60,920 nucleotides of DNA from Armatimonadetes bacterium 13_1_40CM_64_14 (GCA_001917855.1 MNEU01000086.1:1-60920); one strand, 5' to 3'; positions 35,033 through 56,478 are shown, counted from the stretch's first letter. Program-made: numbers and translations. The notes: generated from the letters alone by a model not told the origin.

Positions 35033-35077
35033 ACTGACCCCAATCCAATTGAACAAGCTGGTCTACGATGTCTTGGC

Positions 35078-35662
35078 CTATAGTGACCGAAAGACAATGC
35101 GTCCATCCCATGCAGACGGCAGCTTCGGCAGTCTCCGGAATGCTCCTACTGGACCAAAGATAACGAGCTGATCAGCACGTGGCCCGAACGGGTTCACGAA
35201 CGCGCACAGGCGACGCGCCAAGGCGAGCACCTGCTCCCGTGATGCATCCGGATCGCTCACCGCAACGGCGACTCGACGCCCATCCCGCCAGACCCACAAC
35301 ACCGTGACGCGGCCCACCTGATCTTGGCCGTTCAACAAGTATCCCTCGGCTTGCATTTTCCGACGTGCACGCGCATAGAGGAGGCAGCGCGCTACGACGG
35401 AGTATGAGATTCGGACTTCTTCAGCTGGCAGCCCGAGAATCGCCACCCCCCGCCGGCCCAACGAGTATCCGCGCTGACTGCCCAAGTGGTGGATTGTGAG
35501 CAGCCGAGCGCGCCTCAATAGCCATAGGCGTTGCCAGAGTGCATGCGCTGAGGGGAAGAGATCCACCAAACACGCACTGTCACATGCGCGCGCTGCATGC
35601 ACCCGGGCGAGGATCTCCAGATCCCGGGAAGTCACCTGAACCCGTCCTCGCTGCACCGCCAT
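35078..35662 (-). CDS. Replic_Relax-like wHTH protein, nuclease motif apparently degenerate
   Basis: VTSRDLEILARV....LFPS....RL..L.RARLL...YSLGRRG resembles the Replic_Relax N-terminus; SD GGAGG. Confidence 0.55.
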   Translation of the reverse strand: MAVQRGRVQVTSRDLEILARVHAARACDSACLVDLFPSAHALWQRLWLLRRARLLTIHHLGSQRGYSLGRRGVAILGLPAEEVRISYSVVARCLLYARARRKMQAEGYLLNGQDQVGRVTVLWVWRDGRRVAVAVSDPDASREQVLALARRLCAFVNPFGPRADQLVIFGPVGAFRRLPKLPSAWDGRIVFRSL

Positions 35663-36299
35663 CAACTGATTTCCTCCAGACACCCAAGGGAAGTGGGACT
35701 ACAAGCGTACGCTCGCATCCGAGATCCTGAAGCCACCGGACGCGATCCTCCGTCGGCCCCGCCCAGATCGTTTCCCTGGCCAGATGCTTGAACTCTCGCA
35801 ACTTGTGCCGCATCTGCACTGCCGTGTAACGACCGTGGTCGTATTCGAGTGCCAGGCGTACCCCGCGGATGTCGGCGAGACCGTCAGGGAGAGCGCGCAC
35901 GGCCGGACCTACTGTCCCCGCCATCCGTGGGGCCTCCACATCCCTTGCGGATGTCCATGCGTCAAGCGATATGTGCAGTCGGGTTCGCAGCACCGCAACG
36001 CCAAGTTGATGCTCCACTTCGTGGCCGACCGTAGCCACAACCGCTGGACGGCCTAGACATCGTTGGGCCACCAATCGCCCAATGGGACTCAGGACCACAA
36101 TGTCCGTCGGGATCACCCGTCGGCTATAGCCCGTCGGCTTCAGCGCCGGTCGGGTGACCCTGACTAAGCGTTGCCTCACGAGGGTCCGCAGGAAGCCCAT
36201 CAAGTGTGGTTCCTCCTGCGAGAGGCCAATTAGAGACCACACACCGTCGATCGCGAGGATCCGGAGCAGATGGGATCGGCCTTCCATTATCGGATTCAT
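35580..36299 (-). CDS. Replic_Relax-like PD-(D/E)xK protein
   Basis: LSPIG...EHQLGV...LPDGL......LALEYDHG.Y....KL. Confidence 0.6.
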   Translation of the reverse strand: MNPIMEGRSHLLRILAIDGVWSLIGLSQEEPHLMGFLRTLVRQRLVRVTRPALKPTGYSRRVIPTDIVVLSPIGRLVAQRCLGRPAVVATVGHEVEHQLGVAVLRTRLHISLDAWTSARDVEAPRMAGTVGPAVRALPDGLADIRGVRLALEYDHGRYTAVQMRHKLREFKHLARETIWAGPTEDRVRWLQDLGCERTLVVPLPLGVWRKSVDGGAARTGSGDFPGSGDPRPGACSARM

Positions 36300-36307
36300 C
36301 TAAATAC

Positions 36308-36336
36308 TTGCAATTTACTATCAGCAAGAGTATTAT
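36308..36336 (+). promoter_or_regulatory. putative promoter of the transfer operon
   Basis: TTGCAA-17 nt-TATTAT in an AT-rich divergent gap; imperfect inverted repeat AATACTTGC...GCAAGAGTATT. Confidence 0.6.
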
Positions 36337-36369
36337 TGGGCCGCACAGATTTTGCGTCAAGGAGCACCT

Positions 36370-37707
36370 GTGGACGAATCGTGGAGTACCCTCTCACAGC
36401 GGGTGAAGGCGAAACTGGGTCAGCCGCTTCCCGATCTCCCGCCCGGTGATCCCGCCACCCCCGAGTTCTTGGAGTTGCTGACGCGGTTACGCAAGACCGA
36501 CCCTGATCTAGCCGAGGCTGTGATCAACGCTTACACGGGGACGGTTGAACCGTTACCCTCAGAACTCGAGGCGGCAGCCGAACGACGGCGCCAGCGCTTG
36601 TACCAACGCCTCCTCGCGCGCTTCGTCCGTCCTGATGGGTTGCGGACAGGTCGTGTACGGCTGAACCTGAGAAAGACGATCAACTACGGCATCGCCGCCG
36701 CAGCAATTCTCCTCATCATCTGGTCGCTCGTTCCAAAATCGCCACAGCGGTACAGGACGACGCGACGCGGGGACGCGGCCGCCTCACAAAGCCGGCGGCA
36801 GGAGATCTTGCCGTCGTTGACGCTATCCCCTTCCCCATCGCGTGAGCCGCGCCCGAGACCGTCTCTCTTAACGGGCGCACCAGATGCCGCTGCGTTGACG
36901 ATCAGCCGACCTGGGATTGCGGCGTCCCACCTGATTCCAAACGCCACGCGGGCCTCCAATTCGCCCGTGCCAGTGCGCGGTTCGGCGCCGACGGTCACTC
37001 CATCCGTCGTTGTCTTTGAGACCAACCACCAGCAGAGCCAATCAGCTCCGCCTGCTGGAGGGCGGTCCGAAAATGACTCGCCACAACAACAGCCCGTGCC
37101 GGTGATTGTCTACGACTCAGGCGGCACCCTCGCGGCAGGCAGTCAACTTCCGCGCGTCCCGTCGGCACCCAGCGCCACGCACCCGGCCGTCCTGGCCATT
37201 TCCCGTGGGCAGTTGTTGGAAGGGAAACTCGTAACGCCTGCCGTCGTGAGTTCCTCACGCGGGAGCACGCCAACGCTCGTCGAGATCACCCAGGGAGCCT
37301 TGCAAGGCGCCGTGCTTTTAGGACAGGCGACTAGAGCGCCAGACGGACTTGTGTTAATTCAGTTCAACGGGTTGATCGCTAAGGACGGAAGAGAGCACTC
37401 GTTCAGAGGCACAGCCTACGACCCGGGGCTGGGCAGCGTAGGGATACGGGGCCAGACGACGACGATGATGCCCGACGCTTCTTCCGCGCTTCTCGGCGCA
37501 ACCATGCAGTCGGTTGGCGATTACTTCACAGCTCGTGCACGCCAGACGCAAGTTACCACCCCAGGGGGACAGCAGGGTCCCACCTTATGGGACGGACTTG
37601 CTTCCACCGTAGCACGCGCGTTTGCACCTAGTTCGGAGGTTCCGCCCGGACCAACTGTGGTGACGCGACTGGATCGCGGACAGATCGTAACGATCCTAGT
37701 CTTATAG
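36370..37707 (+). CDS. VirB10/TrbI-like protein
   Basis: One TM, Pro/Ser-rich linker, C-terminal GQLLEGKL...GAVLLG...LIQF..L...G......AYD beta-domain; SD AAGGAG before GTG. Confidence 0.6.
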   Translation: MDESWSTLSQRVKAKLGQPLPDLPPGDPATPEFLELLTRLRKTDPDLAEAVINAYTGTVEPLPSELEAAAERRRQRLYQRLLARFVRPDGLRTGRVRLNLRKTINYGIAAAAILLIIWSLVPKSPQRYRTTRRGDAAASQSRRQEILPSLTLSPSPSREPRPRPSLLTGAPDAAALTISRPGIAASHLIPNATRASNSPVPVRGSAPTVTPSVVVFETNHQQSQSAPPAGGRSENDSPQQQPVPVIVYDSGGTLAAGSQLPRVPSAPSATHPAVLAISRGQLLEGKLVTPAVVSSSRGSTPTLVEITQGALQGAVLLGQATRAPDGLVLIQFNGLIAKDGREHSFRGTAYDPGLGSVGIRGQTTTMMPDASSALLGATMQSVGDYFTARARQTQVTTPGGQQGPTLWDGLASTVARAFAPSSEVPPGPTVVTRLDRGQIVTILVL

Positions 37708-37731
37708 GGAACGCGCCCAAGGAGGACGCGC

Positions 37732-38052
37732 ATGCGCACACATCAGGTCGCATGGCTTGTGTTGATCTCCCTAGCGATTGTGAACATTTTCGCGACGCCG
37801 GTGGTTGCGCAGATCAGCACCGAGCAGGCATTGGGGCCTTTTCAGCAGTTCCTGCGCGGGCTGGTGATGTGGATGTTGGGCCCCGGGCGCCTTATTATCG
37901 CCGCGGCGTGGATTCTTTCCGGGTTTCGGGTTGTGCTAGGTATGGATCGGGGCGCGGGTCCCTTCGTTCTCGTCGCGCTGGTCGGCTTCGCCATCGTTTT
38001 CGCACCCCAGATCCTCGGTGCACTGGGCATCGATGTGAGCCCATACATCTAG
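37732..38052 (+). CDS. VirB2/TrbC-like pilin
   Basis: Signal peptide plus two hydrophobic helices (G.AIVF.APQI); position before virB3/virB4. Confidence 0.7.
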   Translation: MRTHQVAWLVLISLAIVNIFATPVVAQISTEQALGPFQQFLRGLVMWMLGPGRLIIAAAWILSGFRVVLGMDRGAGPFVLVALVGFAIVFAPQILGALGIDVSPYI

Positions 38053-38058: not shown

Positions 38059-38379
38059 GTGTTGCGCTCTCCCATCTACCGCGAAATCGACCAATCAGTG
38101 ACCCTCTGGGGCCTGGAGCCCGATGATGTGGTCGTGCTGGCCACTGTTGGCTACTTCGTGGGGGCGTTAACATCTCAACTGCACCTCCGTGTAGGACCGA
38201 TCGACGCTACGCTGCTAGCGTCCTGCATGGGGATCGCTGCAATGTTCTCATCCTGGCTGTACTTCCGGCGGGGAAAGCCCCGGTACTACGCGCACGACCT
38301 CTTGCACGCGGCTTCAGAACCGGATGTCTGGATTGTTACCGCAGATCTCCAAGCGCGCCCCGTTACGCGAGGGGCATAA
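38059..38379 (+). CDS. VirB3-like membrane protein
   Basis: IYREID...LWGLE..D, two TM, RRGKP. Confidence 0.7.
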   Translation: MLRSPIYREIDQSVTLWGLEPDDVVVLATVGYFVGALTSQLHLRVGPIDATLLASCMGIAAMFSSWLYFRRGKPRYYAHDLLHAASEPDVWIVTADLQARPVTRGA

Positions 38380-41145
38380 ATGGATCCGGCCAAGGTACTC
38401 GCTGATTCTGGGGTTACGGCCTCGTCGCTAACCCACGCCCTCCCCTACTGGGCAGTCGTCCATGGCGCAATGCTGCTGCGCGACGGCAGCTATGAGCTGG
38501 GGTTCGAACTCCAGCCCCTCCACCTCGATACGCTCAGCGAGGAAGAGTTGGACGGCGTAGCGCGCAGGTTGAAGCGGCTCATCGAAACACTCCCTGTGCG
38601 GGAGCGCGCCCGCTTTGTCCACAGCAAGGACGCCGACGTTGAACCGGTGATCGCGCAACAAGAAATGCTGATCTCGGAACAGTCAGGCGCGGGGGCCTAT
38701 TTAGCCCGGCGGCGAATCGCTGCTCTTCGCGACGCCGTGAAGCGTGGACAGTACGTTAACCGGCGGCTGCTTCTGTCGCTAACCTACCATCCGCGCCGCA
38801 TCCGTCCTCCACGACGATGGACTGCGGTTACGGTGGTTGTTGGGGTGACTGCCCTCGCCTTTGGAGTTCTTTCGGGGTGGACGGTCGGGCTGATGGCCGG
38901 AGCTGGATTAGCAAGTCTGAGCCTGTGGCTCGGACCCGTGCGCCGCCGTAGACCATTCGTCCCTTTGACCCGTCCGGAGCTTGAGGAAGACGGCGCTGCG
39001 CTTCAGACACTACGGAAGATTATCCTTAGTGCCTTGGATGCGGCTGGGGTTTCCGCCCGCCCCCTGAGGGACAACGAGTATCTCGACTGGGCATGGCGGT
39101 ACTTCAATCCTGGCCGCGCGGCGGCGGGCCTGCGATCGCCGTTGTTGCACGATGAGACACGCACCGAATTGCCCTCGTGGTTTACGAGACCCGATCGCCG
39201 CGACTGGTTGGGGGGTGGCGAATGGATGGCCGATGTGAGCTTGCGCCAAATGATTGCGCGCAGTGGCATCGTCCGTGATCCGTCCACCCTCCTAGTCGAT
39301 GATCGCCACATCAAGATCGTTGCAATGGATGCCTTGCCGGTGGGGGAATCACGCATGAACGAGCTCGTCAAACTCCTGGCGAGCCGGACGAAGGGTAGGG
39401 TCGTCGTGGACATCTCGCGCGAGCCGCGGGCCGCCGCCCTCGCTCGGCTCGCGCTGCGGAGCCGTCTGTTGCACAGCATTATAGAGACCCACGGAGTGCC
39501 CGATACCGTCGCCGCGGAACGCGGGCTGCGGTCGACCCACGAGGTTCATTACCAAGCCGTTGGTGGAGAGATCGAAATCGTGCGCTTTGGGGTGGCGGCC
39601 ATCCTCGTGGGCGAGACCGCAGAGGAGGCCGCGGACGCCGAGCGCGAGGTGCTGGAATTCTTCAACGGCGAGTTACAGGACGCCCAAATCATCCGTGAAG
39701 ACGGCGCGCTGGCGAGGCAGTTCTTCAACCTTGCCCCCTTCTCCGGCCAAATTAACGGTCGGACGCGCGCGGCCCTCTCGATTACTGCGGTCCACTTTCT
39801 GCCGGTTGCCGGCCCGCCCCCCGGCTCGTCACGACCTGTCTTGCTCGCAAGCAACCGCTACCACGGCCTCACCGCAATCGATCCCTTCGACCCGCGCCAG
39901 CACGCCTGGAATGCCGTTGCAGCAGGTTCAACAGGGAGTGGGAAGACATTTTTCTCGGCCATCTTGGCGATGGCCACACATGCGGCGGGCGCACGTGTCG
40001 TCATCGTAGACCGAGGCAGTAATAGTCCCCCGGGCCCGTGGTTGTCAGTAACGCGGTTGCTGGGAGGACAACACATCTCGATGGATCCTGTAACGGGCTC
40101 AGCAGTCAATCCCTGCGACCTGGACTGGGGTCACGTAGAGCCGGATGCCAACAAGGTGACGTTCCTGGTGACCCTCATCAGCCGGATGGTCAGCACTGCT
40201 GGTGCCCCGCTTGACGGATACGAGCGGGGGATCGCCGAAGCCGCCGTGCGCACTGCATATGCTCGGTGCGAGCGTGCCGCCATGTCTGAGGGGATGCGAG
40301 ACGCGGTGGGTGTCTTGCAGATGCGCGACATCGTGCAGAGCTTCCGTATGCTAGGTGCGGTGGCCGGCACGCATCAGATCAGCGACGACGACCGTCGCGC
40401 GGCCCAGCGCATCGCCTCCCGACTGTACCAATGGGTCGACCGCGGCCGGTTTGCGAGTCTCGTTGACCGTGCCACCACGGTGAATCTAACGCAGGACTGG
40501 ATCTACATTGACGTAGCAGCCCTGGAAAGCAATCCCGAACTCATGCCGGTGATGATCCTTATCCTCACCGACCTAATCTGGCGACACGTTAACCGCAATC
40601 TGGGTACCGTGCGTACCCTCGTGGTCCTTGACGAGGTCTGGGCTCTCATCGCCGATCCCGTTGCAGGGGCATTCGTTGAGGACCTGTACCGGCGTTTCCG
40701 AACAACCGGCTCGGGGGTGTTGTCAATATCCCAGGACATCAGAGACTTCCGGAACAATGAACATGCGCTCGCCGTCCTCGCCAATTCTAACGCGTACTTC
40801 CTCTTTCGCACGGAGAATCCCGCCGCATACGGGGAGGTGCTCCGCTTGAATCCCCGGGAGGTCGAAGCAAATCTCGCGCGCATGTCAACGGCCACCGGGG
40901 AATACGCCGAGCTCATGCGTGTGCAACGTCTTCAAGACCGTAGCGCTAGTGGTTTGCTGGCCCTTTTTCCCTCTCCCAGCGACTACTGGCTAGTTGCCAG
41001 CCATGCGCAAGAACGGGTGCTCCGCGACCAATACTTTTGTGCGCACGCCGACCCACTACAGGCCTTGGAAGCACTGGTCCGCGATCACCCCACCCCCGCT
41101 AGCCTCCCCCTCACCCACGTACGCAAGGAGGATAACCGAGCATGA
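38380..41145 (+). CDS. virB4: VirB4-family T4SS ATPase
   Basis: Walker A GSTGSGKT, IVD, NP.D, Walker B VVLDEVW, R.FR..G....ISQ. Confidence 0.9.
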   Translation: MDPAKVLADSGVTASSLTHALPYWAVVHGAMLLRDGSYELGFELQPLHLDTLSEEELDGVARRLKRLIETLPVRERARFVHSKDADVEPVIAQQEMLISEQSGAGAYLARRRIAALRDAVKRGQYVNRRLLLSLTYHPRRIRPPRRWTAVTVVVGVTALAFGVLSGWTVGLMAGAGLASLSLWLGPVRRRRPFVPLTRPELEEDGAALQTLRKIILSALDAAGVSARPLRDNEYLDWAWRYFNPGRAAAGLRSPLLHDETRTELPSWFTRPDRRDWLGGGEWMADVSLRQMIARSGIVRDPSTLLVDDRHIKIVAMDALPVGESRMNELVKLLASRTKGRVVVDISREPRAAALARLALRSRLLHSIIETHGVPDTVAAERGLRSTHEVHYQAVGGEIEIVRFGVAAILVGETAEEAADAEREVLEFFNGELQDAQIIREDGALARQFFNLAPFSGQINGRTRAALSITAVHFLPVAGPPPGSSRPVLLASNRYHGLTAIDPFDPRQHAWNAVAAGSTGSGKTFFSAILAMATHAAGARVVIVDRGSNSPPGPWLSVTRLLGGQHISMDPVTGSAVNPCDLDWGHVEPDANKVTFLVTLISRMVSTAGAPLDGYERGIAEAAVRTAYARCERAAMSEGMRDAVGVLQMRDIVQSFRMLGAVAGTHQISDDDRRAAQRIASRLYQWVDRGRFASLVDRATTVNLTQDWIYIDVAALESNPELMPVMILILTDLIWRHVNRNLGTVRTLVVLDEVWALIADPVAGAFVEDLYRRFRTTGSGVLSISQDIRDFRNNEHALAVLANSNAYFLFRTENPAAYGEVLRLNPREVEANLARMSTATGEYAELMRVQRLQDRSASGLLALFPSPSDYWLVASHAQERVLRDQYFCAHADPLQALEALVRDHPTPASLPLTHVRKEDNRA

Positions 41146-42104
41146 GAGGTGCGATCGTAGCGTTCGCTCTCGTCCTGACCGTCCTGGGAGCTGTCCCCGT
41201 AGAAGCTTCCTTGCCCGGAGGCGATTGGAACACAGAGGACGGTTTGCTCATATTCCTCAGTCAACTCCATCGGCAAATTGACGGGATTTTAGCCTGGATC
41301 GCAGGAGTCGCCGACTACTCGGAGGCGGCATTCCAGTCCCTCGCCCCCATTTTCGACCGTGCGTATAGCGCCCAAGTGCTCGCTCGGCGCATTGATGGCC
41401 TGGCCACGGGGGGACCGCGGCGGTTTCAGGAGGTCCTGCGCGGTTTTGCAGGCCGCCTGCGCACGATCCCCCTCCCGCGTCCTGGTACCCCCCGATGGGT
41501 CATTGAGCAAGTAATCCACGCATCCCCGCACGGAGAGACCGCCCAGCAAGCCCAGGCCCTCGATCAGGTCACTGAGGAAAATGTGGCTGCCCTTGCCACC
41601 GCGCTCAGCGCAACCGAGGCCGCGCGGATTGCGGCCTCTCAGATTGTCGATGATCTCAGCCCTCAAGCGCAGGCACAGGTGGCCATGTCCGCCGCGCGGG
41701 ACTTGGCAATCCGAGCTCAGTACACGCCCAGCACGCGCGCGGCCGTACAACTCCTGGTCGAAGCCATGGCCGCCCAGATCGACCTTCAGAGCCACACCGC
41801 CGAATCGGTCATCGGGCGGCAGACTGCGGCGATCCAACAGCAGACGCTCTTGAGCCTGCAGCTTGCGGCCGTGGTGGATCGGCTGGCAACTCTCAACGAC
41901 CAGGAAAACGCACACCAGAAGGACCGGTTAGCCCAGCACACCGCAGCAGGGGTCGGTCTTTTCGAGTCCCAACGCCAAACGTTCGCGGAGATCGCACAGA
42001 GCCTCCTGACGCTGAACTCGCTGCAACAACAGCAGGAGATGGATCGGTTCTTCGCCGTGTTGACCAAGGGGGTCGTGGGGCGTGCCGACGCTCTTCAGCC
42101 CTGA
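41142..42104 (+). CDS. VirB5/TrbJ-like secreted helical protein
   Basis: Signal peptide, Q/A-rich coiled coil, between virB4 and the virB6-like gene. Confidence 0.5.
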   Translation: MRGAIVAFALVLTVLGAVPVEASLPGGDWNTEDGLLIFLSQLHRQIDGILAWIAGVADYSEAAFQSLAPIFDRAYSAQVLARRIDGLATGGPRRFQEVLRGFAGRLRTIPLPRPGTPRWVIEQVIHASPHGETAQQAQALDQVTEENVAALATALSATEAARIAASQIVDDLSPQAQAQVAMSAARDLAIRAQYTPSTRAAVQLLVEAMAAQIDLQSHTAESVIGRQTAAIQQQTLLSLQLAAVVDRLATLNDQENAHQKDRLAQHTAAGVGLFESQRQTFAEIAQSLLTLNSLQQQQEMDRFFAVLTKGVVGRADALQP

Positions 42105-43155: not shown

Positions 43156-43164
43156 CGTGCTGCG

Positions 43165-46248: not shown

Positions 46249-46266
46249 GGGGATCCCTTGCGGTAT

Positions 46267-47091: not shown

Positions 47092-47802
47092 ATGCTCAAC
47101 ATGTTTAGGAAAAGCACCCGCATGCGAGATCTCACTCTGGTCTCTGATGAGAGCCCACGAAACCGCCTTGCGGTCGCGGGACCTGCGGCTCTTGCGGTGC
47201 GGGAGTTGCTCGAGTTGATCCTTGGCAGAGGGAAGCTGAGGAAACAAGGTCGATGTCCTGCCGACGAACTCGCCGCTGCGTTTCCGTCTCTTTCCGCGTT
47301 AGACGCCGCAACTCTTGAGGATTTTGCCGCTATTGTCGGGCAGCACAATGCGGGAAGACTCGCCGCTGCCCTAGAGTTAGGACGGCGCATCCGGATTAGT
47401 GCTGTGGGTACCCGACCGGTCATCCAGACGGCAGTGGACGTATACCAGTTGCTGGGTTCTGAAATGGGAAGGCTCGATCGTGAACACTTCCGAACCATCT
47501 TGTTGAATACAAAAAATCGGGTAATCCGTGTGTGTACTGTCTCAATTGGTGGGCTGAGCCAAGCGCCCGTGCATCCGCGAGAGGTGTTTAAAGACGCCAT
47601 TAAGCATGGGGCATGTGCGATGATTGTGGTTCACAATCATCCATCGGGCGATGCTACGCCGAGTGCTGAGGACAATATGATCACGGACCAGCTCGCCGCG
47701 GCTGGTAAGCTGGTAGGTATCCCCCTACTTGACCATATCATCATCGGCGATGGACAGTATGTGAGTCTCCGCGAAAAGGGCCTCCTCTCCTCGCCCCCCT
47801 AG
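47092..47802 (+). CDS. radC: RadC-family JAB domain protein
   Basis: AALELGRR, REHF, VHPREVF, HNHPSGD.TPS.ED, LLDHII. Confidence 0.92.
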   Translation: MLNMFRKSTRMRDLTLVSDESPRNRLAVAGPAALAVRELLELILGRGKLRKQGRCPADELAAAFPSLSALDAATLEDFAAIVGQHNAGRLAAALELGRRIRISAVGTRPVIQTAVDVYQLLGSEMGRLDREHFRTILLNTKNRVIRVCTVSIGGLSQAPVHPREVFKDAIKHGACAMIVVHNHPSGDATPSAEDNMITDQLAAAGKLVGIPLLDHIIIGDGQYVSLREKGLLSSPP

Positions 47803-48010
47803 CTGTGCGCGGTGTGGCGCAGGCGGTTCGTTAGGACATCCTCGGCTCATGATCTAGACCACTGAAGCCAGATCAACCTCCGATAGGATTCCGTGCTTTC
47901 CGCCGGTCGACGCTTAGTTGCCGTCTTGGACATATGTTGGGCGCTTCGGTGGCCAATGTTACTCTAAGCATTCTCGAGGAACTTTCAGTGGTCCACAGGG
48001 AGGGTTCAAA

Positions 48011-50032
48011 GTGTGGGATCAGATTGTCATGTTGTGGCTGACCGCCATCTTTCTTAGTGTTATCGCGTGGTCCCGTGCTCGGGGCGCCAACAGGCGCCAA
48101 GCGATGAAGAGTGTTGTGCGACTCATTGGATACGGGGTGCCTATCGTGTTGGCGTGGGAATGGTTCGATGCATTGCCGCTTGGCGGGATCCTGGCCAAGA
48201 CGGCCCTCGTCGCCGGATTGCTATGGTGTCTAGCTTACCGCCTGTGGACCAGGGCGTTTCTCGCGTGGCGCATTCGGGGTCAGCAAGGCCAACGGCTCCG
48301 CGCTCTGGCTTCTGGGGAGCAAGATCCTCGGGATCTTGGCCGCCTCAAGTGGTCACAGGTCATCTATGACCGTGAACAAGCACTTGCTCCTTACCTGCGC
48401 GAAGAAGCAGGCGCTTACTGGCTGGCGCGTTCCGATCCGCTCCCGGGCAGGCGCTGGTTGGGACTGACGTTGTCTCGGGCGTACGATGTGGCAGTCCCAA
48501 AAGATCTCATGCTGCGCCATGTACTCATTCTTGGCTCGACCGGCGCGGGGAAAACACGCACGGCTCTGCAGGGGATCGTCGAGCAGCAGATCGCACGGGG
48601 ATTGGGCGCGCTTGTCCTGCAATTCAAGCACGACGAGCTATTTTACCGAAGCGTTCTAGATGCTGTTGCGCGCGCTGGCCGGGAAGCGGAGTGCATCTAC
48701 TTCAGCCTCCGAAGCGATGACGAGAGCCGAACGGCGGCCTGGAATCCCCTTGACTGGCCAAATTCAGCCGAGGTTGCTGAAGCTGTGGTGCACGCGACCC
48801 TCGATGATCTCGCCGCCCTACGCTATTTTGCCGCGCAAAATCTTGATGCGCTCGGGGTTGTCCTCGACGGCGCCAGGCGTCGGGGGGAAACGCTCAGCTT
48901 TGGGCGGCTGGCGGACCTGCTCGCACAAACCGGCCGATCGGGTGCCGGGCAGCCGCTCCTGGCGTACCTGCGGTCGTTTCCTGACCTACGAGCTCGGGCC
49001 CAGAGGGTGCGGTGGGATCACGCCAGTGAGCTCAAGATGCTGGCGGCGCAGTTGGGACGGTTTGCGGCCTTGACGCCGGCTCCGGGCCGCGTCGCGTTTG
49101 ACCTTCGGACCGCGGTGCAACAAGGGCAGGTCGTGTTGGTGAACCTGGATGCCACGACTTTCCCGAAGGCTGCGCGATGCGTGGGGCGGCTTTTCATCGC
49201 AGCGTTATCTGCCGCATATTCGGGCCTTCGGCGCACCGAGGACGACCGCGTCTATCTCGTTGCCCTCGATGAGTTTGGCCCTGTCGCCGGGCCGCATCTT
49301 TCAAGCATGCTGGGCACCGCGCGGGGGTTCGGGGTGAGTCTCGTGCTGGCAACGCAGAGTTTGGCGGACTTACGGATCGCGGGGCAACGAGAAGCTGCCG
49401 GGGCGCTTGCCGCTCAGGTCGTAGAAAACATTGGCACGCAGATCGTTTTTGGCCTCCGCAATCCCCAGGACGCAAAGTGGTGGTCGGAAGCCAGCGGCAG
49501 CGTCCTGCGTGACGAGATGACGGACGTACTCGTGGAGGGTCGTGCTGATCGGAACTACGTCAATCGACGACAGGCGTCGCAACGGGAATCGGCCGCCGTT
49601 TCGATCAACCAATTGCTCTTTACACCGCGGTCGAAGGCTTTCATTTGGATTCCATCACGGCGGTGCCTTCGTGCGCCGGGCAATCGATCAGCCTATCTGA
49701 ATCCAGAACCAGACCGTCGCAGCGTCATTCTGGGAAATTTCGTGCTTCCGTCCGATCCGAGTCCGTGGCCTCAGATCCGGGGCGGATGCATTGGAGGCAT
49801 GGGGCGGGCGCTTGCGGGGACCCAACCGATTCATCCGGTCATGCCCCACCAGCAAAGCACGTCGACATCGACGGAACCGGGGCATGCCGACCCGCCCCGC
49901 CTTTTTGGAGGGGGCGTGATTGGACGAACGTTGTTAGGGTCTATGACCTGCTCCATCGCTACCAGGGAAGGTACACGGTCACAACTTAGGGAGTGCAATG
50001 AATCCGACTCGGGAGGAGGGGTGAAGCAGTGA
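48011..50032 (+). CDS. second TraD/TrwB-like coupling ATPase
   Basis: N-terminal TMs, HVLILGSTGAGKT, WNPL, VALDEFG, ARG.G...VLATQS.ADL; SD GGGAGG before GTG 48011. Confidence 0.85.
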   Translation: MWDQIVMLWLTAIFLSVIAWSRARGANRRQAMKSVVRLIGYGVPIVLAWEWFDALPLGGILAKTALVAGLLWCLAYRLWTRAFLAWRIRGQQGQRLRALASGEQDPRDLGRLKWSQVIYDREQALAPYLREEAGAYWLARSDPLPGRRWLGLTLSRAYDVAVPKDLMLRHVLILGSTGAGKTRTALQGIVEQQIARGLGALVLQFKHDELFYRSVLDAVARAGREAECIYFSLRSDDESRTAAWNPLDWPNSAEVAEAVVHATLDDLAALRYFAAQNLDALGVVLDGARRRGETLSFGRLADLLAQTGRSGAGQPLLAYLRSFPDLRARAQRVRWDHASELKMLAAQLGRFAALTPAPGRVAFDLRTAVQQGQVVLVNLDATTFPKAARCVGRLFIAALSAAYSGLRRTEDDRVYLVALDEFGPVAGPHLSSMLGTARGFGVSLVLATQSLADLRIAGQREAAGALAAQVVENIGTQIVFGLRNPQDAKWWSEASGSVLRDEMTDVLVEGRADRNYVNRRQASQRESAAVSINQLLFTPRSKAFIWIPSRRCLRAPGNRSAYLNPEPDRRSVILGNFVLPSDPSPWPQIRGGCIGGMGRALAGTQPIHPVMPHQQSTSTSTEPGHADPPRLFGGGVIGRTLLGSMTCSIATREGTRSQLRECNESDSGGGVKQ

Positions 50033-50856
50033 CTGACCTGACAGTTAAGCAAGCTGTTCAGGCAGACCGTGATCCGGATGTGCTCGTCTGGCTTGCGCGT
50101 CTGCAACTAGCGACTTCTGGACAGATTTCGGCGTTGGGATGGCCCGGGGATGGTGATGAGTGCAAGAAGAGACGGCTGCGCGAGGTACGAGAAGCCGGGC
50201 TGCTCGAATTTGTTCGCACTCGTCGTCGCACAGGACACCGTCTAGCCTTGTACCGCCTCACCCCAGTGGGCGCTGTCGCGGCAGCAAGGCTCATCGGCGA
50301 TGACCAGGTCATCCGTGGAGTCCGCCTTGCGGCCACAGAGGGAATTCATCTGGAACATCGGCTCCAGGTGAATGATACCGTTCTCCGGCTAGCCGATTGC
50401 TTCGGACGAGATGCGGTGGAAGTACTGCTTCCGCACCAAAGGCGCTTACGATGGCTAATATCGGGTGGAGCGTGGCACGAGGTCACCCCCGACGTTGTGT
50501 TGGTGTGTCGCAAGGCGGACGCGGCGCTCGTAATCGAGTACGACCGCGGGCTACGGAGTGTCGACAGCGTTTCTCTGCAGCTGCGACGCTATCGGGAAGC
50601 GGCCGAGCAACCAGATCTTCCCATGTGGGCGGGGCGATCGTCTATCGCATACGCGCTCCACCCTCCCTCGCCCGCGCGGGCAAGTGCGATTCTGCAAGCG
50701 GCAGCGGCCGCTGGGCTGGAGTCGCGTGTAGTCGTCGTCGCTGTCCAGGATCTGGCCTTGGTCGTCGCGGATGCTTTCGCGAAAACGCACGCGGCGTCTC
50801 CCGGACCGGCTCCGGATCCGGGATTAGAATCTCCGCCGATCGGTGCGCATTTTTGA
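50029..50856 (+). CDS. Replic_Relax (MOBC-like) putative relaxase
   Basis: LATSGQI, RRL..., YRLTPVG, LEHRLQVND, PDVVL........IEYDRG; GTGA-coupled to the coupling ATPase. Confidence 0.75.
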   Translation: MTDLTVKQAVQADRDPDVLVWLARLQLATSGQISALGWPGDGDECKKRRLREVREAGLLEFVRTRRRTGHRLALYRLTPVGAVAAARLIGDDQVIRGVRLAATEGIHLEHRLQVNDTVLRLADCFGRDAVEVLLPHQRRLRWLISGGAWHEVTPDVVLVCRKADAALVIEYDRGLRSVDSVSLQLRRYREAAEQPDLPMWAGRSSIAYALHPPSPARASAILQAAAAAGLESRVVVVAVQDLALVVADAFAKTHAASPGPAPDPGLESPPIGAHF

Positions 50857-50971
50857 CCATAGCCGCGTTCTGGGCAGTTGTTGTTGCCCGAACGTCGACG
50901 CGTTCTGTTCGACTGGCGCGCGTGCGAGCATCGTGGCGTGGGTGTGACGGCAGAGTTGCGTTACCAAGGAG

Positions 50972-52390
50972 GTGAATCGAGTCATGGCTCTCGTGCACGC
51001 AGTTGGAGCGCTCCTGACGCATAGTGCAGCGGTGACCGAACGGCATCCGTTCGATGCAGCTGTGGTGATCGTCGGTTGTCTGCTCCCGCGAATTTTCCCG
51101 TTGACTGTTGGGAGGGATCTCTACTGGACGGCATGGTGGATTCTTTTGGTTTGCTGGGCCGTGGGCGGCGCTGAGGGTACCGTTTTGTGGGACAAGGTGC
51201 GCAGGACGCCTTCGCCGCAGGAACCCGGGTGGTGGTCTAGGCTGTGCGTGCGCACCGGTGAATGCGCCCGGCGGATTGCAGGTAGAGTCGGCGCGAGAAC
51301 TCTAGGTGCGGGCGCCCCTATCCCTGCCAATATTCTCACGGCCCCGAGGTTGTCCGAGGCAATCCAATCAGAAGTGTGCGCCGTTAGTCCAGAGGTGAGG
51401 GTTGAGTGGGTTGGACAACCCCAGACTGGAGCGGATAGGCATGTGTCTGACCTGAGGCGCCTCCTCACGGTCGAGGCGACGTTGAAGGCGCGGATCGTGG
51501 GGCAGGATCACGTCGCGGCCGCTATCACTAAAGCCCTTTTGCGGCGCGCAGTAGACAGCGATTCACGCCGGCCGGTGCTGTCGGTCCTCGCGGCAGGACC
51601 GACAGGTGTAGGCAAGTCGGAAACGGCAAAGGCGCTAGCCGAAATCCTGGATCGACCGCTGCTCGCCTACGACATGGCAAGCTTTGGGGAGCAGCACACC
51701 GTAGCGGCGTTGATCGGCGCCCCGCCAGGGTATGCGGGTGCCGAACGGTGTGGGCGGCTCGTAGCGGATGTGCAGCGTCACCCCAACGCTGTAGTCCTGT
51801 TAGATGAGATCGATAAAGCGCACCCCACATTGCTTGATCCATTCATGCGAGTCTTCGAAGATGGGCAGTTTACCGAACTTTCCCGGGGAGAGAGTGCAAA
51901 CTTCGGCGACACGGTCGTCATCGCAACCACCAACCTGCTCCAGCGTGAAGCGACTATCTCATGGAGCGACGACCCTGCCCAGGTGCGGCGGATGCTGCTC
52001 CAGGCACGTGCCGGCTACCCAGAGGGTCCGAGCCGTAGCTTTAGCCTGCGGCCTGAGTTGATTGCTCGTCTTGACATCACAATTCTATACAGGCCGTTAT
52101 CCGCCGCAGTTGTGGAGCGTATTGCGCACGAATACGTTCCTGCCTTCGTCCACCGTATCACGACACAGATGGGAATCCACCCGGAGGTTACAGTGGATGC
52201 TCGGTTGGTGGATGAGATCATCGGCCGTTTGGATCTCCAGTTCGGCGTTCGTGAACTCAAACGCGTGGTGGGGGAAAGACTGGGCGACGCGCTGGTGGAG
52301 GGCTATCTCCCATGGATGATGCGCGGTGAGATCCCGGTCGCGGTTGAGGTCAGAGCGACCAGCGGTCAGATTACGGCTGTATTCCGGTGA
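50972..52390 (+). CDS. membrane-anchored ClpA/B D2-type AAA+ ATPase
   Basis: N-terminal hydrophobic segments, RIVGQD, GPTGVGKS, GAPPGYAG, LLDEIDKAHP, TTN, RPELIARL, FGVREL; no D1 ring. Confidence 0.85.
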   Translation: MNRVMALVHAVGALLTHSAAVTERHPFDAAVVIVGCLLPRIFPLTVGRDLYWTAWWILLVCWAVGGAEGTVLWDKVRRTPSPQEPGWWSRLCVRTGECARRIAGRVGARTLGAGAPIPANILTAPRLSEAIQSEVCAVSPEVRVEWVGQPQTGADRHVSDLRRLLTVEATLKARIVGQDHVAAAITKALLRRAVDSDSRRPVLSVLAAGPTGVGKSETAKALAEILDRPLLAYDMASFGEQHTVAALIGAPPGYAGAERCGRLVADVQRHPNAVVLLDEIDKAHPTLLDPFMRVFEDGQFTELSRGESANFGDTVVIATTNLLQREATISWSDDPAQVRRMLLQARAGYPEGPSRSFSLRPELIARLDITILYRPLSAAVVERIAHEYVPAFVHRITTQMGIHPEVTVDARLVDEIIGRLDLQFGVRELKRVVGERLGDALVEGYLPWMMRGEIPVAVEVRATSGQITAVFR

Positions 52391-52399
52391 GGTGATGAT

Positions 52400-53011
52400 A
52401 TGCAAATCTTGGCACGAGTGAGTACATTTGCGATTGTCGGTCTCTTCTTGCTCAATGTCGCGTTGGGAGTCATTGAAGAGGTTGTTACGCATCGTGTCCA
52501 CCGGGGGGAGGCCCAGGGCGCGGGACTGCCCCGATCGGCAGGGCGAGGGTCACGCCCAGTGACGGACCTCGGGGAGGCGCTTACCGCAGATGTGCACTTC
52601 TTTGCGAACCGCGTCGTGATCGATGTGGAGGCCAAGAGGGTTCTCCGCACGCAGAGGGACTTGCGATTTGATCTGCTAGTTACTCCCCGTGCGGTTGACG
52701 GGTTCGTCATTCTCCCGATGGATCGGTTAGCGGTGGATGGGGCGAAGACTGCAATTGTCACAGAGGACGGATCTTGGCTCCACGTGAAGGCTGTATACGG
52801 CGTGGGATTGGTCTTCGATAGCGAAGTCCGTCGCAGTTCTCCAGTCTACGCGATTGGTGTGCCACGACAGGTGGAGTTGGTGTTCCCCGCCCCCTCATCG
52901 AGCAGGCGTGCAACACTACTTGTGAGGTGGGCTCCGGGAAAGGCAGTCGTGTACGCACAGGGCTGGCGAGTGGACAGGATTTTGGAAGTTTCCCTCCCCC
53001 CTCAGCCATAA
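52400..53011 (+). CDS. hypothetical membrane-anchored protein
   Basis: SD GAGG, N-terminal TM, beta-rich body. Confidence 0.6.
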   Translation: MQILARVSTFAIVGLFLLNVALGVIEEVVTHRVHRGEAQGAGLPRSAGRGSRPVTDLGEALTADVHFFANRVVIDVEAKRVLRTQRDLRFDLLVTPRAVDGFVILPMDRLAVDGAKTAIVTEDGSWLHVKAVYGVGLVFDSEVRRSSPVYAIGVPRQVELVFPAPSSSRRATLLVRWAPGKAVVYAQGWRVDRILEVSLPPQP

Positions 53012-53284: not shown

Positions 53285-53932
53285 ATGAGCACCTTGACAA
53301 AGGAAAGCAGCAGTCCCGTAAAGGTCGCGCAAGTCTTTGCCGACTTCAGGCTCGGTCTGCCTCGTATGGGTACCGTCTTCGTGAGTGCGCGCCGACACAG
53401 GGTCCAGGTGTCCTGGACCGCCAAGGGGCTAAGGGGAATGTGTAAAAAGTGCACACGCCAAGATGGGTGTGCTGCGGTCTTCGATGCCATTCGCGCGGTG
53501 GAGATCTTGGCTGAGGCGTGGGAGCGTCCTCCGATCAGTCGCATCCAGGCCCGCGTTGAGGCAGATATTCAGTCGGACCCGTTGACCGAACCGGAGCAGC
53601 CCAGAATCCGTCCGTACGATGGACTAGCCAGGGATATTTGCCAGGCGGACCTAGTGCCAATCCACATACCGCCTTGGGCGTACGACGAGCAGGGCACCCG
53701 ACGTCCGGTCGTCGACGCCGAGATCGCTGAAGACGTTTGGTACGAGCTGCAGCACAGGCTAAATCGCCTACTCGGCTATCGGATCCATGCGGAGACGAGC
53801 TACCGTCCTCCTGTCCACAAGTACTACCAGGCAAGCTGGGAGCTGGATCGGGGGATGACGCACGCTGCATTCAAGCTTGATCTCCTGACAGACCTCGATG
53901 AGGATGGGCAGCTCGATGCGTTTGCGCCGTGA
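53285..53932 (+). CDS. hypothetical protein with a SWIM-like Cys cluster
   Basis: SD GGAGGA; CKKCTRQDGC after beta strands; acidic C-terminus. Confidence 0.6.
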   Translation: MSTLTKESSSPVKVAQVFADFRLGLPRMGTVFVSARRHRVQVSWTAKGLRGMCKKCTRQDGCAAVFDAIRAVEILAEAWERPPISRIQARVEADIQSDPLTEPEQPRIRPYDGLARDICQADLVPIHIPPWAYDEQGTRRPVVDAEIAEDVWYELQHRLNRLLGYRIHAETSYRPPVHKYYQASWELDRGMTHAAFKLDLLTDLDEDGQLDAFAP

Positions 53933-55413
53933 ACGGAGACTGCGGGCGATCCACGTCTACGGCGGCCCCTCATGGCGTGCCGGAACCCGGCCGCCGTCCG
54001 ATGCCCCGGGAGCCCGACCCGCCGGAGCCTTCGGCGGCGAGGCAGTGGGATTACCCACACGAAGCACTCTGGGAACCCAAGGTTTTGATGCCGACAGCAG
54101 TTGAATCAGTTCTGGGCGAAATTCGCGAACGTCTGCCGCTCACCAAGTACCTCGTGAGCAAGGGCTTCAAGCTGCGGCAGACGGGACGGAATCGCATGGT
54201 CGCGCTCTGTCCATTCCATGCCGACAAGCGGCGGCCAAACATGGTCATTTACACGGATGAACACCGTTTTCACTGCTACTGCTGCGGGGCTAGGGGTGAC
54301 GTCGTCGATATGGCGCGCTGTCTGGACGGCTACCTCAATTTCACAACAGCGCTGCGGGCGCTAGCAGCTAGCGTTGGGCTGTCCTTGCCCCATGGTCGTC
54401 CACAGATTAGTGAGGATAGGGGTGGGATCCTCACGCTGGCTGCGAAGTTGTACGCAGAGCATTTGGGTTCTGACGTGCTTGCATACCTCGGACGCCGGGG
54501 TTTTCCCGAGGCATTCGTGCGAAAGTGGCGCATCGGCTACGCCCCCCAGAAATCACCCCAGCTCCTGCGAGACTTCCTCAGGCAGCACACCGTTGCACCG
54601 GAGGCAGCACTGGCTTCTGGCGTACTGATCGAGGCAGGCGCCCGGGACGGGCGCCTGCTGCGCGACTTCTTCGGGAACGGCGGCGGCGGGTATATCGTCT
54701 TCCCCAACCCGGCACGCGACGGAGGTATCATCGACCTGCAAGGCCGCGCTTTTCCCAACGGTAGCAACAAGCCGAAGTACCTTAACTTGCCCAAGGGCCG
54801 ACGTTACCTCTTCAACGAGAGCATCGTGCCGCGGTCGTCCGTCATTCTCACTGAGGGAATCCCCGACGCTTTGAGTTGTCTCCTGGTCGACCAACCTGCC
54901 GTTGCAGTCTATGGAACGAGCGGTTTCTCAGACCGGTCCGTGAATCAGTTCGTTCTGTGCCGCCGCATTTACGTCGCTTTCGACCTGGACGCTCACCGTC
55001 ATAGCGTCGAGATTGCCATGCAGTTTGGATTGCGCGGCCGCGTGGTCATGTTACCGGAGTCGCTCGGCCGCAACGGCGACCTGAACGACTTTCTCATGCA
55101 GCGTGGTGCCGCGTCGTTCAGTAACGACCTGACGCAGCTGCTTCAAACTGCCGACACCGGTTACGGAGCGGCTATCAACGAGCTGCCTACGGATCTCCAG
55201 CCCTACGACCTATTCGAGAGCGCCACGTCGCTGTTGGCTGCATTGGGAGCGGTAGATCCGATAAGCCGAGACGTGTATCTTCAGAGGTTACACGTCAAAT
55301 ACGGCATCGCGATGGACACTCTCCGCGACGCGGCAAGGGAGGCGCTGTTCATGACGCCCAGCACGACATTTTCCGGGACGTCGCTCGGGGTGGCCGATCC
55401 TACGGGCCATTAG
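53929..55413 (+). CDS. DnaG-like DNA primase (CHC2 zinc finger + TOPRIM)
   Basis: CPFHADK...CYCCG, IGYAP, QGR...PKYLN, TEG.PD.LS, FDLD, DLND. Confidence 0.9.
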   Translation: MNGDCGRSTSTAAPHGVPEPGRRPMPREPDPPEPSAARQWDYPHEALWEPKVLMPTAVESVLGEIRERLPLTKYLVSKGFKLRQTGRNRMVALCPFHADKRRPNMVIYTDEHRFHCYCCGARGDVVDMARCLDGYLNFTTALRALAASVGLSLPHGRPQISEDRGGILTLAAKLYAEHLGSDVLAYLGRRGFPEAFVRKWRIGYAPQKSPQLLRDFLRQHTVAPEAALASGVLIEAGARDGRLLRDFFGNGGGGYIVFPNPARDGGIIDLQGRAFPNGSNKPKYLNLPKGRRYLFNESIVPRSSVILTEGIPDALSCLLVDQPAVAVYGTSGFSDRSVNQFVLCRRIYVAFDLDAHRHSVEIAMQFGLRGRVVMLPESLGRNGDLNDFLMQRGAASFSNDLTQLLQTADTGYGAAINELPTDLQPYDLFESATSLLAALGAVDPISRDVYLQRLHVKYGIAMDTLRDAAREALFMTPSTTFSGTSLGVADPTGH

Positions 55414-55507
55414 CCCTGGAAAACACCGGTCGTTCCCCCACATGCCTTGCAAGGCGCCGTGGGACCGGGCGCTGGAAGCAAAGAGGGACCCGAAACCTCC
55501 CCCCCCC

Positions 55508-55545
55508 TTGTATCTGTAGTCACAATGGATTATCATGTGGTCACA
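55508..55545 (+). promoter_or_regulatory. vapBC promoter with two operator palindromes
   Basis: TTGTAT-17 nt-TATCAT; TGTAGTCACA (55515) and TGTGGTCACA (55536). Confidence 0.7.
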
Positions 55546-55560
55546 AGAGGGGTTAGGCTT

Positions 55561-55833
55561 ATGGCGACTGTCGGTGTGCGAGAACTCAAAGCCCGTCTGA
55601 GTCAGTACCTCAAGCGTGTAGGGCGTGGCGAGCGCATTGTCGTCACGGAGCGCGGACGCCCCGTCGCTGTGATCGGCCCTGCTGCAGCATCCGTGCGCAC
55701 CGAACGACTTGAGGCAATGCTCCGAAGCGGGATGGCAAGGTGGGCAGGTGGAAAGCCGCGCGGGTCTGCGCGGCCAGCTCGACTGACACATGGCCCGTCG
55801 GTTTCTGAGGCCATAATTGAGGACCGCCGGTGA
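55561..55833 (+). CDS. Phd/YefM-family antitoxin
   Basis: VGVRELKARLSQYL..V..GE.IVVTERGRPVA. Confidence 0.92.
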   Translation: MATVGVRELKARLSQYLKRVGRGERIVVTERGRPVAVIGPAAASVRTERLEAMLRSGMARWAGGKPRGSARPARLTHGPSVSEAIIEDRR

Positions 55834-56261
55834 TCTTGTATCTCGATGCCAGCGCGCTGGTCAAACTGTACGTTGATGAGGACGGGGCGCGACAGGCTCG
55901 GCAGGGTGTGCAGGGTGCCGAGGTGGTCGCAACATGCGAGATCGCGTACGTCGAGGTCCGAGCCGCGCTGGCGCGCCGACGCCGGGAAGGCTCATTGAAA
56001 CCTGCAGATTACCGGCGGGCGGTGCGCGATCTCCATAGCGACTGGCCGGAGTTCTTCTTGATCACCGTAGGTAGTCCCCTTGTTCGAGAAGCCGGGACAA
56101 TCACGGAACGTTACCGCCTACGAGCCTATGACGCCGTCCACTTAGCTGCAAGTTTGGCAGTCCAGGCGCGGACAGAAGAGACCGTGACCTTCGCCTGCTG
56201 GGATCGGGCCCTAGCGGACGTAGCCGTCAAGGCTGGCCTCCAGCTGTTTCCGATCGTCTAG
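55830..56261 (+). CDS. vapC: VapC PIN-domain toxin
   Basis: YLDASALVK, E.RAAL, LRAYDAVHLA, D..L. Confidence 0.92.
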   Translation: MILYLDASALVKLYVDEDGARQARQGVQGAEVVATCEIAYVEVRAALARRRREGSLKPADYRRAVRDLHSDWPEFFLITVGSPLVREAGTITERYRLRAYDAVHLAASLAVQARTEETVTFACWDRALADVAVKAGLQLFPIV

Positions 56262-56421
56262 AAGCGGCGGCTCTGAAGGGACCAAGCGTTATTCCTGTGC
56301 TGCCGGGGGATGAGGAGGCTGCGAGGACCCCGTAAGAGCGGCTCTTCGGTGGTCTTGCGGTCCGGTAGCAGACGTTAGCAGATTTGGCTCAGAATCCCAC
56401 TCTCCGATCTCCTATCCGAAG

Positions 56422-56462
56422 AAAATTCAAACAGCTGGACGTGAGAAACCCTGCGTCCAGCC
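56422..56462 (-). terminator. probable terminator downstream of selC
   Basis: GCTGGACG/CGTCCAGC stem followed by TGTTTGAATTTT on the minus strand. Confidence 0.5.
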
Positions 56463-56478
56463 TGCCTCTAGTGAGTTT

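Follow-up and report, generated by a model that had tools for sequence, protein, structure and literature searches.

A conjugation-like island with a candidate MOBC relaxase and no detected integrase beside tRNA-SeC in a Sysuimicrobiales genome

We examined a conjugation-like island in the genome of Armatimonadetes bacterium 13_1_40CM_64_14 (GCA_001917855.1 MNEU01000086.1:1-60920). The window, i.e., the whole stretch of 60,920 nucleotides that was analyzed, is the entire contig C56 of a 95-contig, 2.08-Mb metagenome-assembled genome (MAG; here named G000) with a completeness of 77%, which was placed in the order Ca. Sysuimicrobiales (phylum Sysuimicrobiota/CSP1-3) because Candidatus Thermofontivivens primus is a genome of the same order. 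The island spans positions 35033 to 56478 (21.4 kb), has a GC content of 0.613 versus 0.640 for the genome, and encodes a type IV secretion system (T4SS), two coupling proteins, and a candidate relaxase of the Replic_Relax (MOBC) type. It is bounded by a conserved small open reading frame (ORF) beside a GGDEF gene and by the gene for the selenocysteine tRNA (tRNA-SeC), and thus adjoins the 3' end of selC, as a preliminary description of the locus had stated. The left flank harbors hflX, an aminotransferase gene, miaA, mutL, mutS, the GGDEF gene, and the small ORF of 145 amino acids (aa); on the right, tRNA-SeC is followed by an ABC transporter operon.

Gene families were assigned by Pfam and NCBIfam scans of the island ORFs using the model cut-offs, together with topology predictions for transmembrane (TM) helices and signal peptides (Table 1). 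The compact transfer operon had been described as VirB10/2/3/4/5/6-like plus VirD4. In our scans, VirB4, VirB6, and VirD4 exceeded the cut-offs, VirB2 and VirB10 remained below them, and the VirB3 and VirB5 assignments rest on position, topology, and synteny, neither protein having a family match in Pfam or NCBIfam. The best NCBIfam model for VirB4 is of the TraC-F type, with 193 bits below a cut-off of 567, and the VirB2-like protein is predicted to carry a signal peptide and two TM helices. A VirB3-like gene lies immediately upstream of VirB4 in all eight relatives' loci examined, the VirB5/TrbJ-like candidate gene is kept 3' of VirB4 in the relatives G025 and G066, and the VirB10-like gene is kept in the loci of G003, G025, G023, and G080. 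Throughout, G001 denotes a sister species of the window MAG, G002 a third species of the same genus, and G003 another genus of the window's family, while f3, f4, and f5 are other families of the order. Matches to TrwB_AAD_bind and TraG-D_C bore out the earlier call of a second, TraD-like ATPase, which has two N-terminal TM helices and a 67% paralog on contig C31 of G000.

The start of the RR_c gene overlaps the stop of the TraD-like gene, and RR_c and its own coupling protein are translationally coupled as a DNA-processing module. An alignment of nine sequences revealed the invariant residues H110, D155, E170, D172, R173, and G174 in RR_c; no plasmid relative of the protein was detected by tblastn. 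PF13814, the family of RR_c, was assigned to the PD-(D/E)xK fold in 2012, as given in the available text of PMC3424549, and its members are scored as MOBC relaxases by CONJscan according to the accessible part of Coluzzi 2017 (PMC5357655). MOBC is described, in the section consulted of a T4SS review (PMC12857230), as an established PD-(D/E)xK relaxase family of conjugative plasmids, ICEs (integrative and conjugative elements), and mobilizable elements. The use of a Replic_Relax protein is therefore not new in kind. Since a MOBC relaxase paired with a VirD4-type coupling protein has also been described in streptococcal integrative and mobilizable elements (IMEs) (PMC5357655, same part), the earlier proposal that Replic_Relax nucleases serve here in an element class not yet described finds no support.

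Three Replic_Relax genes had been counted, of which RR_c stands firm. RR_b, transcribed divergently from the T4SS operon, scored below the PF13814 cut-off, and 2 of its 38 homologs have a precomputed PF13814 assignment. It aligned to RR_c in BLASTP with E=0.001, and its own invariant residues (H97, D139, E152-Y-D154-H-G156) include equivalents of the invariant acidic/His residues of RR_c, the two proteins having the motif EH..PD..E-x-D-x-G in common. For RR_a, no sequence match was found in Pfam, NCBIfam, or PDB, and none of 40 homologs has a Pfam domain; one of them, P0007 (89% identical), is encoded on a JGI contig of 673,670 bp. In the AlphaFold model of RR_a (predicted local distance difference test [pLDDT] 83), a winged helix precedes an alpha-beta-beta-beta-alpha-beta domain. 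Its weak Foldseek matches include EndoMS/NucS, XisH, and Bax1; those to PD-(D/E)xK nucleases are at best E ~1e-3, with none at E <=0.001. The conserved acidic motif retained in RR_b and RR_c is absent from RR_a, and hhalign of RR_a against RR_c and RR_b gave a probability of <=5%, with the alignment confined to the N-terminal winged-helix stretch. RR_a has a ratio of nonsynonymous to synonymous substitutions (dN/dS) of 0.26 in comparison with G001.

The remaining genes named earlier, i.e., ssb, radC, the ClpB-like ATPase gene, the primase gene, and the antitoxin/PIN pair, were all assigned by Pfam or NCBIfam. By their families, SSB, RadC, and the primase are predicted establishment genes and Phd/PIN a predicted addiction module. 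As far as can be read from sequence, the island is made up like a conjugative element that has a MOBC relaxase. In one metagenome copy of the island, a different toxin-antitoxin-like pair, named by reading its ORFs, takes the place of Phd/PIN. The membrane-anchored protein following the AAA+ ATPase is kept in the metagenome copies and on contig C31. The 215-aa Cys-rich protein has 45 homologs, all of 164 to 228 aa and none with a Pfam domain; a structural search gave no match (best E 0.9), with a poor model (pLDDT 66).

Table 1. Features of the island and its borders (positions in the window)
Feature	Position	Strand	Basis
Left junction interval	35033-35077	.	From stop of ORF 34595-35032 to stop of RR_a
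RR_a, 194-aa winged-helix protein with nuclease-like fold, island end gene	35078-35662	-	AlphaFold model pLDDT 83
RR_b, divergent Replic_Relax-like protein	35580-36299	-	PF13814 22 bits, below cut-off
VirB10/TrbI-like bitopic membrane protein	36352-37707	+	TrbI 17 bits, under cut-off 35; one TM helix
VirB2/TrbC-like pilin	37732-38052	+	TrbC 22.3 bits, under cut-off 27.9; dN/dS 0.11
VirB3-like small protein	38059-38379	+	Position, size, topology, conservation
VirB4/TraC-family ATPase	38380-41145	+	P-loop_TraG 49.3 bits (cut-off 25.8), TraC_F_IV 49.3 bits (cut-off 28.1)
Secreted helical Q-rich protein, VirB5/TrbJ-like candidate	41142-42104	+	Signal peptide; position
VirB6/TrbL channel protein	42082-43155	+	TrbL 39 bits (cut-off 25.9); five TM helices
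VirD4-type coupling protein, 1027 aa	43165-46248	+	T4SS-DNA_transf 130 bits; two N-terminal TM helices
SSB	46615-47010	+	PF00436 113 bits; dN/dS 0.16
RadC-like JAB protein	47092-47802	+	PF04002 155 bits; NCBIfam above cut-off
Second coupling protein, TraD-like, 704 aa	47918-50032	+	TrwB_AAD_bind 49 bits, TraG-D_C 37 bits
RR_c, Replic_Relax (MOBC-type) candidate relaxase	50029-50856	+	PF13814 57 bits (cut-off 25.3)
Single-module ClpA/ClpB-D2-like AAA+ ATPase	50972-52390	+	AAA_2 118 bits; aligns to ClpA positions 441-718
Membrane-anchored protein	52400-53011	+	N-terminal TM helix; no family match (Pfam, NCBIfam)
215-aa Cys-rich protein	53285-53932	+	True start = Met83 of longest ORF
DnaG-type primase	53929-55413	+	Zn_ribbon_DnaG, DNAG_N, Toprim_3
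Phd/YefM antitoxin (55447-55833) and PIN toxin (55830-56261)	55447-56261	+	Pfam
Right junction interval	56262-56478	.	Short local hairpins only
tRNA-SeC	56479-56572	-	ARAGORN; 3' end faces island

The reported absence of an integrase, an HUH relaxase, and a duplicated tRNA 3' end from the island was upheld by all searches. Pfam scans of the island ORFs tested detected no recombinase or HUH relaxase families, DDE families being covered by those ORF scans only, and NCBIfam models gave no match in the ten ORFs of no assigned family. Sequence searches of the PDB with a 297-aa ORF, RR_c, and RR_a returned no match, and for RR_c no MOBC structure was found; against the ESM Atlas, the 297-aa ORF reached scores below 0.8 only. 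Integrases were also sought in the rest of the genome. A six-frame search of the MAG with PF00589 yielded three matches, all on contigs other than C56, and the serine recombinase families PF00239 and PF07508 had no match across the whole 77%-complete MAG. The island holds no stretch of >=15 nucleotides (nt) copied from tRNA-SeC; of the partial matches anywhere in the window, the longest has 18 nt at 89% and lies in mutL (E 7.8). No repeat of >=9 nt is common to both island ends. Elements of this kind are on record: the accessible text of Cury 2017 (PMC5587801) reports that integrases were missing from 37 of the 200 ICEs delimited, of which 6 carried DDE recombinases and 6 had integrases that were pseudogenised.

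The arrangement was recovered from several data sets. In G001, which is a different MAG from this genus, the 24-kb contig C223 is collinear with window positions 25603 to 49588. On the metagenome contigs L086 and L091, which are independent, the genes from VirB4 through the primase are arranged as in the window, with the T4SS and processing modules linked. In two soil runs, Logan contigs (16.6 and 12.7 kb long) span the left junction at a flat depth of ~10; these runs are not independent support, because they may be the source of the window DNA. Two runs of other studies contain island pieces, mostly >=99% identical, among their Logan contigs. Two joints seen in Logan contigs, from 39648 to 52887 (21-letter side) and from 52158 to 43624, look like cross-matches and were rejected. 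One X3 Logan contig departs from the window sequence at 34986 with a loose end of 30 letters, for which the window has no match. The Logan contigs were laid out over stretches of at most 20 kb, which never took in both island ends at once, and on this scale no joint between the ends was seen.

We then compared G000 and G001 using a Nei-Gojobori script for dN and dS. Six flank genes (the aminotransferase gene, miaA, mutS, the GGDEF gene, the 145-aa ORF, and mutL) have dS values of 0.36 to 0.46, and twelve island genes have dS values of 0.26 to 0.56 with dN/dS of 0.09 to 0.34. A truncated hflX ORF (dS 0.19) was excluded, as the long ORF takes in a non-coding extension. ORF 46509-46892 was rejected as a gene, being a wrong frame over ssb; its dN/dS of 1.2 served as an internal control. 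All compared genes are intact, i.e., they align as single tblastn segments with no frameshifts, and the only stops lie in 5' extensions of longest-ORF calls, in agreement with the earlier remark that the major ORFs look intact. The 145-aa ORF between the GGDEF gene and the island (34595-35032, + strand) has no family match; with 92 to 94% aa identity in G001 and G002 and a dN/dS of 0.10, it is a real gene.

The island occupies the same locus in two of the three species of the genus (G000 and G001). G002, 93% complete, contains no island DNA apart from a remnant of RR_a, namely its last 47 codons (155 to 201; 81% identical), preceded by 141 unrelated bases and the contig end. A second G002 contig begins 730 bp past the tRNA, so that the locus has contig breaks and offers no clean empty site. 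Flank identities among the three species (87.8, 89.2, and 89.8%) are about equidistant, and together with the RR_a remnant this indicates that the island is older than the three species and was lost in one. As the cut falls inside a gene, the loss was not a site-specific excision. The simplest reading of these alignments is that the island is ancestral at this locus, has since passed down vertically while under selection, and in G002 fell to an imprecise event of removal or replacement. Of the two patterns contrasted in the preliminary description, vertical conservation was thus seen in G001, and an empty selC site was not, G002 having a truncated end gene instead. The alternative it had offered to a new class, a domesticated chromosomal DNA-transfer system, gains support from the shared locus in G001, the flank-like dS, the purifying selection, and the non-site-specific remnant in G002.

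Furthermore, we analyzed whether related systems exist in the order by searching 94 Sysuimicrobiales genomes with a VirB4 profile. Matches were found in 25 genomes, i.e., in 19 of 23 genomes of f3, 2 of 34 of f5, none of 12 of f4, and 1 of 21 of the window's family besides G000. A fragment in G003 comprises RR_a, RR_b, VirB10, VirB2, VirB3, and the start of VirB4 at 48 to 76% aa identity. That element ends <=42 bp beyond the RR_a stop, RR_a being the terminal gene in both G000 and G003, and it adjoins a SpoIIIAA-like ATPase gene whose G000 ortholog lies on contig C22, with no T4SS there. The element of G066 sits between a transporter gene and an SDR gene. Distant relatives have only the channel genes and VirD4 in common with the island. 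A hidden Markov model (HMM) of the RR_b family identified the same divergent gene upstream of the T4SS in G066, G080, and G025 and in one Thermus plasmid. No integrase was present among the 10 ORFs tested around each of the G066 and G080 elements.

The f3 T4SS is syntenic over ~22 kb in three genera at 55 to 76% aa identity, e.g., in G028:C34:164-187 kb (L032/L033), G034:C5 (L034/L035), and G040:C49 (L036/L037). At least 22 of 23 f3 genomes contain a strong PF13814 gene, and at least 5 of 34 f5 genomes do so (G062 included); these tallies are lower bounds, as the search missed RR_c itself. In all six f3 loci fetched, the PF13814 gene lies beside a VirD4-type coupling gene and away from the T4SS. 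The f3 genes look like a family-wide, vertically kept transfer system. Three f3 VirB4 matches (G085:C245, G074:C92, and G084:C53) have one in-frame TGA each, for which erroneous sequencing, a pseudogene, or recoding of the codon might account.

Within G000 itself, contig C31 (L072, 1-10727) holds a second module of TraD-like, RR_c, AAA+, two unassigned proteins, and primase at 54 to 68% aa identity. PIN and HepT genes are inserted in it, no integrase is present, and the contig is cut at both ends. This paralog suggested that the island might be a tandem of an ICE and an IME, an idea that was discarded since the modules are linked on L086 and L091 and there is no internal tRNA-SeC fragment. In G003 (C65, L030), the tRNA-SeC gene beside selB has a 63-nt partial 3' duplicate 6.5 kb away (2688-2750 and 9293-9387), with no integrase among the six ORFs tested between the copies. 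A duplicate of this kind marks an old integration at selC within the family.

Several known systems resemble the island in part. The MOBC systems TraX of pAD1, MobC of CloDF13, and streptococcal class-8 IMEs share PF13814 with RR_c, their acidic/His residues of the PD-(D/E)xK type may correspond to the conserved ones of RR_c, and in them, too, the relaxase gene is coupled directly to its own VirD4/TraD-type coupling gene, the product of which in CloDF13 is MobB. The streptococcal IMEs carry a serine integrase, whereas the island has none, and unlike the MOBC systems it has two more, far more divergent paralogs beside its T4SS. The nearest plasmid relatives of VirB4 are those of Thermus, Meiothermus, and Deinococcus, with 30 to 34% identity over the C-terminal half, and the secretion system appears to belong to an unclassified lineage of Sysuimicrobiales and Thermus/Deinococcus plasmids. 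On the T. thermophilus plasmid NZ_LR027519.1 (L092), the genes follow the order of the island (VirB2, small protein, VirB4, two unassigned proteins, VirD4), with a Toprim protein and VapBC nearby. Also as in the island, an RR_b-like protein is encoded divergently upstream; this 163-aa 'hypothetical protein' (locus 10930-11421, - strand; RR_b HMM E 3.5e-12, PF13814 E 0.019) is a candidate relaxase, so far unrecognised as such, of the T4SS plasmids of Thermus. In contrast to the island, the Thermus cluster is plasmid-borne and includes an SLT transglycosylase and a SpoIIIAA/VirB11-like ATPase, and no RR_c, TraD-like, or AAA+ module was seen in it, all of which the island has. PLSDB types NZ_LR027519.1 as non-mobilizable, MPF_T, and the available part of Coluzzi 2022 counts no conjugative plasmid among 67 Deinococcus-Thermus plasmids.

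The integrase-less ICEs of Cury 2017, as presented in the text accessible to us, likewise combine a chromosomal conjugation system and a relaxase with no tyrosine or serine recombinase; the island differs in that one locus is common to two species with flank-like divergence. Hfr-type (high frequency of recombination) conjugation and Thermus transjugation offer the idea of a chromosome-borne donor machinery that mobilises chromosomal DNA, as considered here for the island. In contrast to transjugation, the island has a full predicted VirB/VirD4/MOBC set. Thermus transjugation is not known to involve a VirB-type T4SS or a relaxase. Its donor pushes DNA out, and the competence system of the recipient takes it up, as outlined in the part of Blesa 2017 (PMC5365140) available to us. 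Four features set the island apart: a transfer kit that is complete and under selection, the lack of an excision module, vertical inheritance at the species level, and the presence of three proteins with a Replic_Relax or similar predicted fold plus two coupling proteins.

We favor, with moderate confidence, the reading that the island derives from a plasmid-like conjugative element that has become fixed in the chromosome of this Sysuimicrobiales genus, where it is inherited vertically and probably still functions. The integration module may have been lost early in the genus or may never have been present, if a plasmid integrated by recombination. In such an element, RR_c would nick an origin of transfer (oriT) within the island, with RR_b and RR_a as possible DNA-binding or nicking partners. 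RR_b, kept together with the channel genes from Sysuimicrobiales to Thermus, may be the channel's cognate nickase, and RR_a, which lacks catalytic residues, a DNA-binding accessory. The TraD-like ATPase and/or VirD4 would dock the nucleoprotein and pass the single strand on to the VirB channel, unfolding or remodeling of the transferred protein may fall to the ClpB-like ATPase, and SSB, RadC, and the primase would support establishment in the recipient. As the element would be unable to excise, transfer would start within the chromosome. It would thus be Hfr-like, carrying flanking chromosomal DNA along and depending on RecA recombination in a related recipient.

A number of observations weigh against the reading of a fixed, functional element. 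Local inverted repeats in five intergenic stretches form weak hairpins only, none of which makes a convincing oriT. As the MAG is 77% complete, some contig that was not assembled might carry a recombinase that acts in trans. In G001, no assembled sequence covers the right third of the island; because the contig ends at window position 49588, co-divergence is shown for 35.0 to 49.6 kb only. Purifying selection means that the proteins are used and does not indicate for what purpose. The element family has moved between loci, as the copies of G003 and G066 sit elsewhere. In G066, a tRNA-Glu gene with a tyrosine recombinase gene 0.9 kb further on (C11:14911-16312) is located at a distance of 20 kb from the T4SS. 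On the other side, 18 kb past the T4SS and 51 kb from tRNA-Glu, there is an integrase fragment (66281-66960), and a 14-nt repeat of marginal significance (E 0.04), made up of the sequence that directly follows the tRNA, stands beside both. These two sites (L094, L081) bracket the T4SS island of G066 and may be the limits of a classical ICE. In G080, the PF00589 search of five genomes placed a recombinase beyond tRNA-Thr on the far side. A classical ICE ancestry of the element family is, on these arrangements, possible. The preliminary description had named relatives carrying the same element with an integrase as the finding that would speak for a simple deletion; close relatives have shown none, whereas in the distant G066, with its tRNA-Glu and tyrosine recombinase at the distance given above, such a case is possible.

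An active ICE relying on an unrecognised recombinase, be it RR_a, RR_b, or one unassigned protein, would account for relatives at different loci with no classical integrase in the flanking ORFs tested in G066 and G080, for RR_a as the terminal gene in both G000 and G003, and for the island side facing a tRNA 3' end in G000 and G080. The Foldseek matches of RR_a also include XisH-family 'excision controlling factor' structures (E 2.6e-3 to 3.8e-3). However, RR_a lacks the acidic residues kept by RR_b and RR_c, the 215-aa protein has no recombinase-like fold match, the island ends show no attachment site (att)-like repeat, the flank-like dS means no recent movement, and the loss in G002 cut within RR_a rather than at a boundary. 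We therefore regard this explanation as unlikely. The same absence of integrase and att repeat, the loss in G002, and the 6 of 200 ICEs with pseudogenised integrases in the consulted text of Cury 2017 would also fit a decaying ICE remnant, its integrase end deleted and itself heading to loss. Such decay is poorly compatible with genes that are intact in two species at dS ~0.4, with dN/dS far from the 1.2 of the wrong frame, and we consider it improbable.

Vertical inheritance and purifying selection would also agree with a T4SS that has been turned to a use outside conjugation (release of DNA, delivery of proteins, or contact-dependent killing, for example), with the relaxase-like genes acting as regulators. 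The related T4SS in the sister family f3, with its synteny in three genera, agrees with this, and PF13814 was first read as a transcription regulator, according to the available text of PMC3424549. On the other hand, the whole DNA-transfer kit is kept (a MOBC protein that shares an operon with its coupling protein, plus SSB, RadC, a primase, and an addiction module), the invariant motif of RR_c is kept, and no effector-like cargo was seen in the island, which leaves domestication of this kind a rather unlikely prospect, if slightly less so than decay. A chimera of assembly or binning, raised in the preliminary description and conceivable for a 95-contig MAG, is extremely improbable: it is contradicted by the same junction and order in the independent MAG G001, by the order on L086 and L091, and by the Logan contigs that bridge flank and island at even depth.

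A conjugative set that selection keeps intact and that has no means of excision is more readily explained by chromosome mobilisation or domestication than by a selfish ICE. One may go further and speculate, though we hold this doubtful, that the integrase-free fixed systems of Sysuimicrobiales are built-in Hfr-type donors kept by the host, and that the RR_b family is the missing relaxase of Thermus/Deinococcus T4SS plasmids. If true, conjugation genes would be kept by a host for gene exchange and not by a selfish element, and plasmids currently scored as non-conjugative by the tools would have a relaxase. The RR_b family beside the T4SS is a testable candidate in this respect in a culturable relative, Thermus thermophilus. 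Conjugation genes of the uncultured phylum Sysuimicrobiota (CSP1-3) are apparently considered here for the first time, as the main texts of the phylum literature that were searched make no mention of conjugation, T4SS, or mobile genetic elements.

Outside the island, the window has a region of low GC content (0.57 to 0.58) at positions 21000 to 24000. It contains an ORF of 358 aa with no Pfam match (22207-23283, - strand), which is divergent from lexA (23297-24007).

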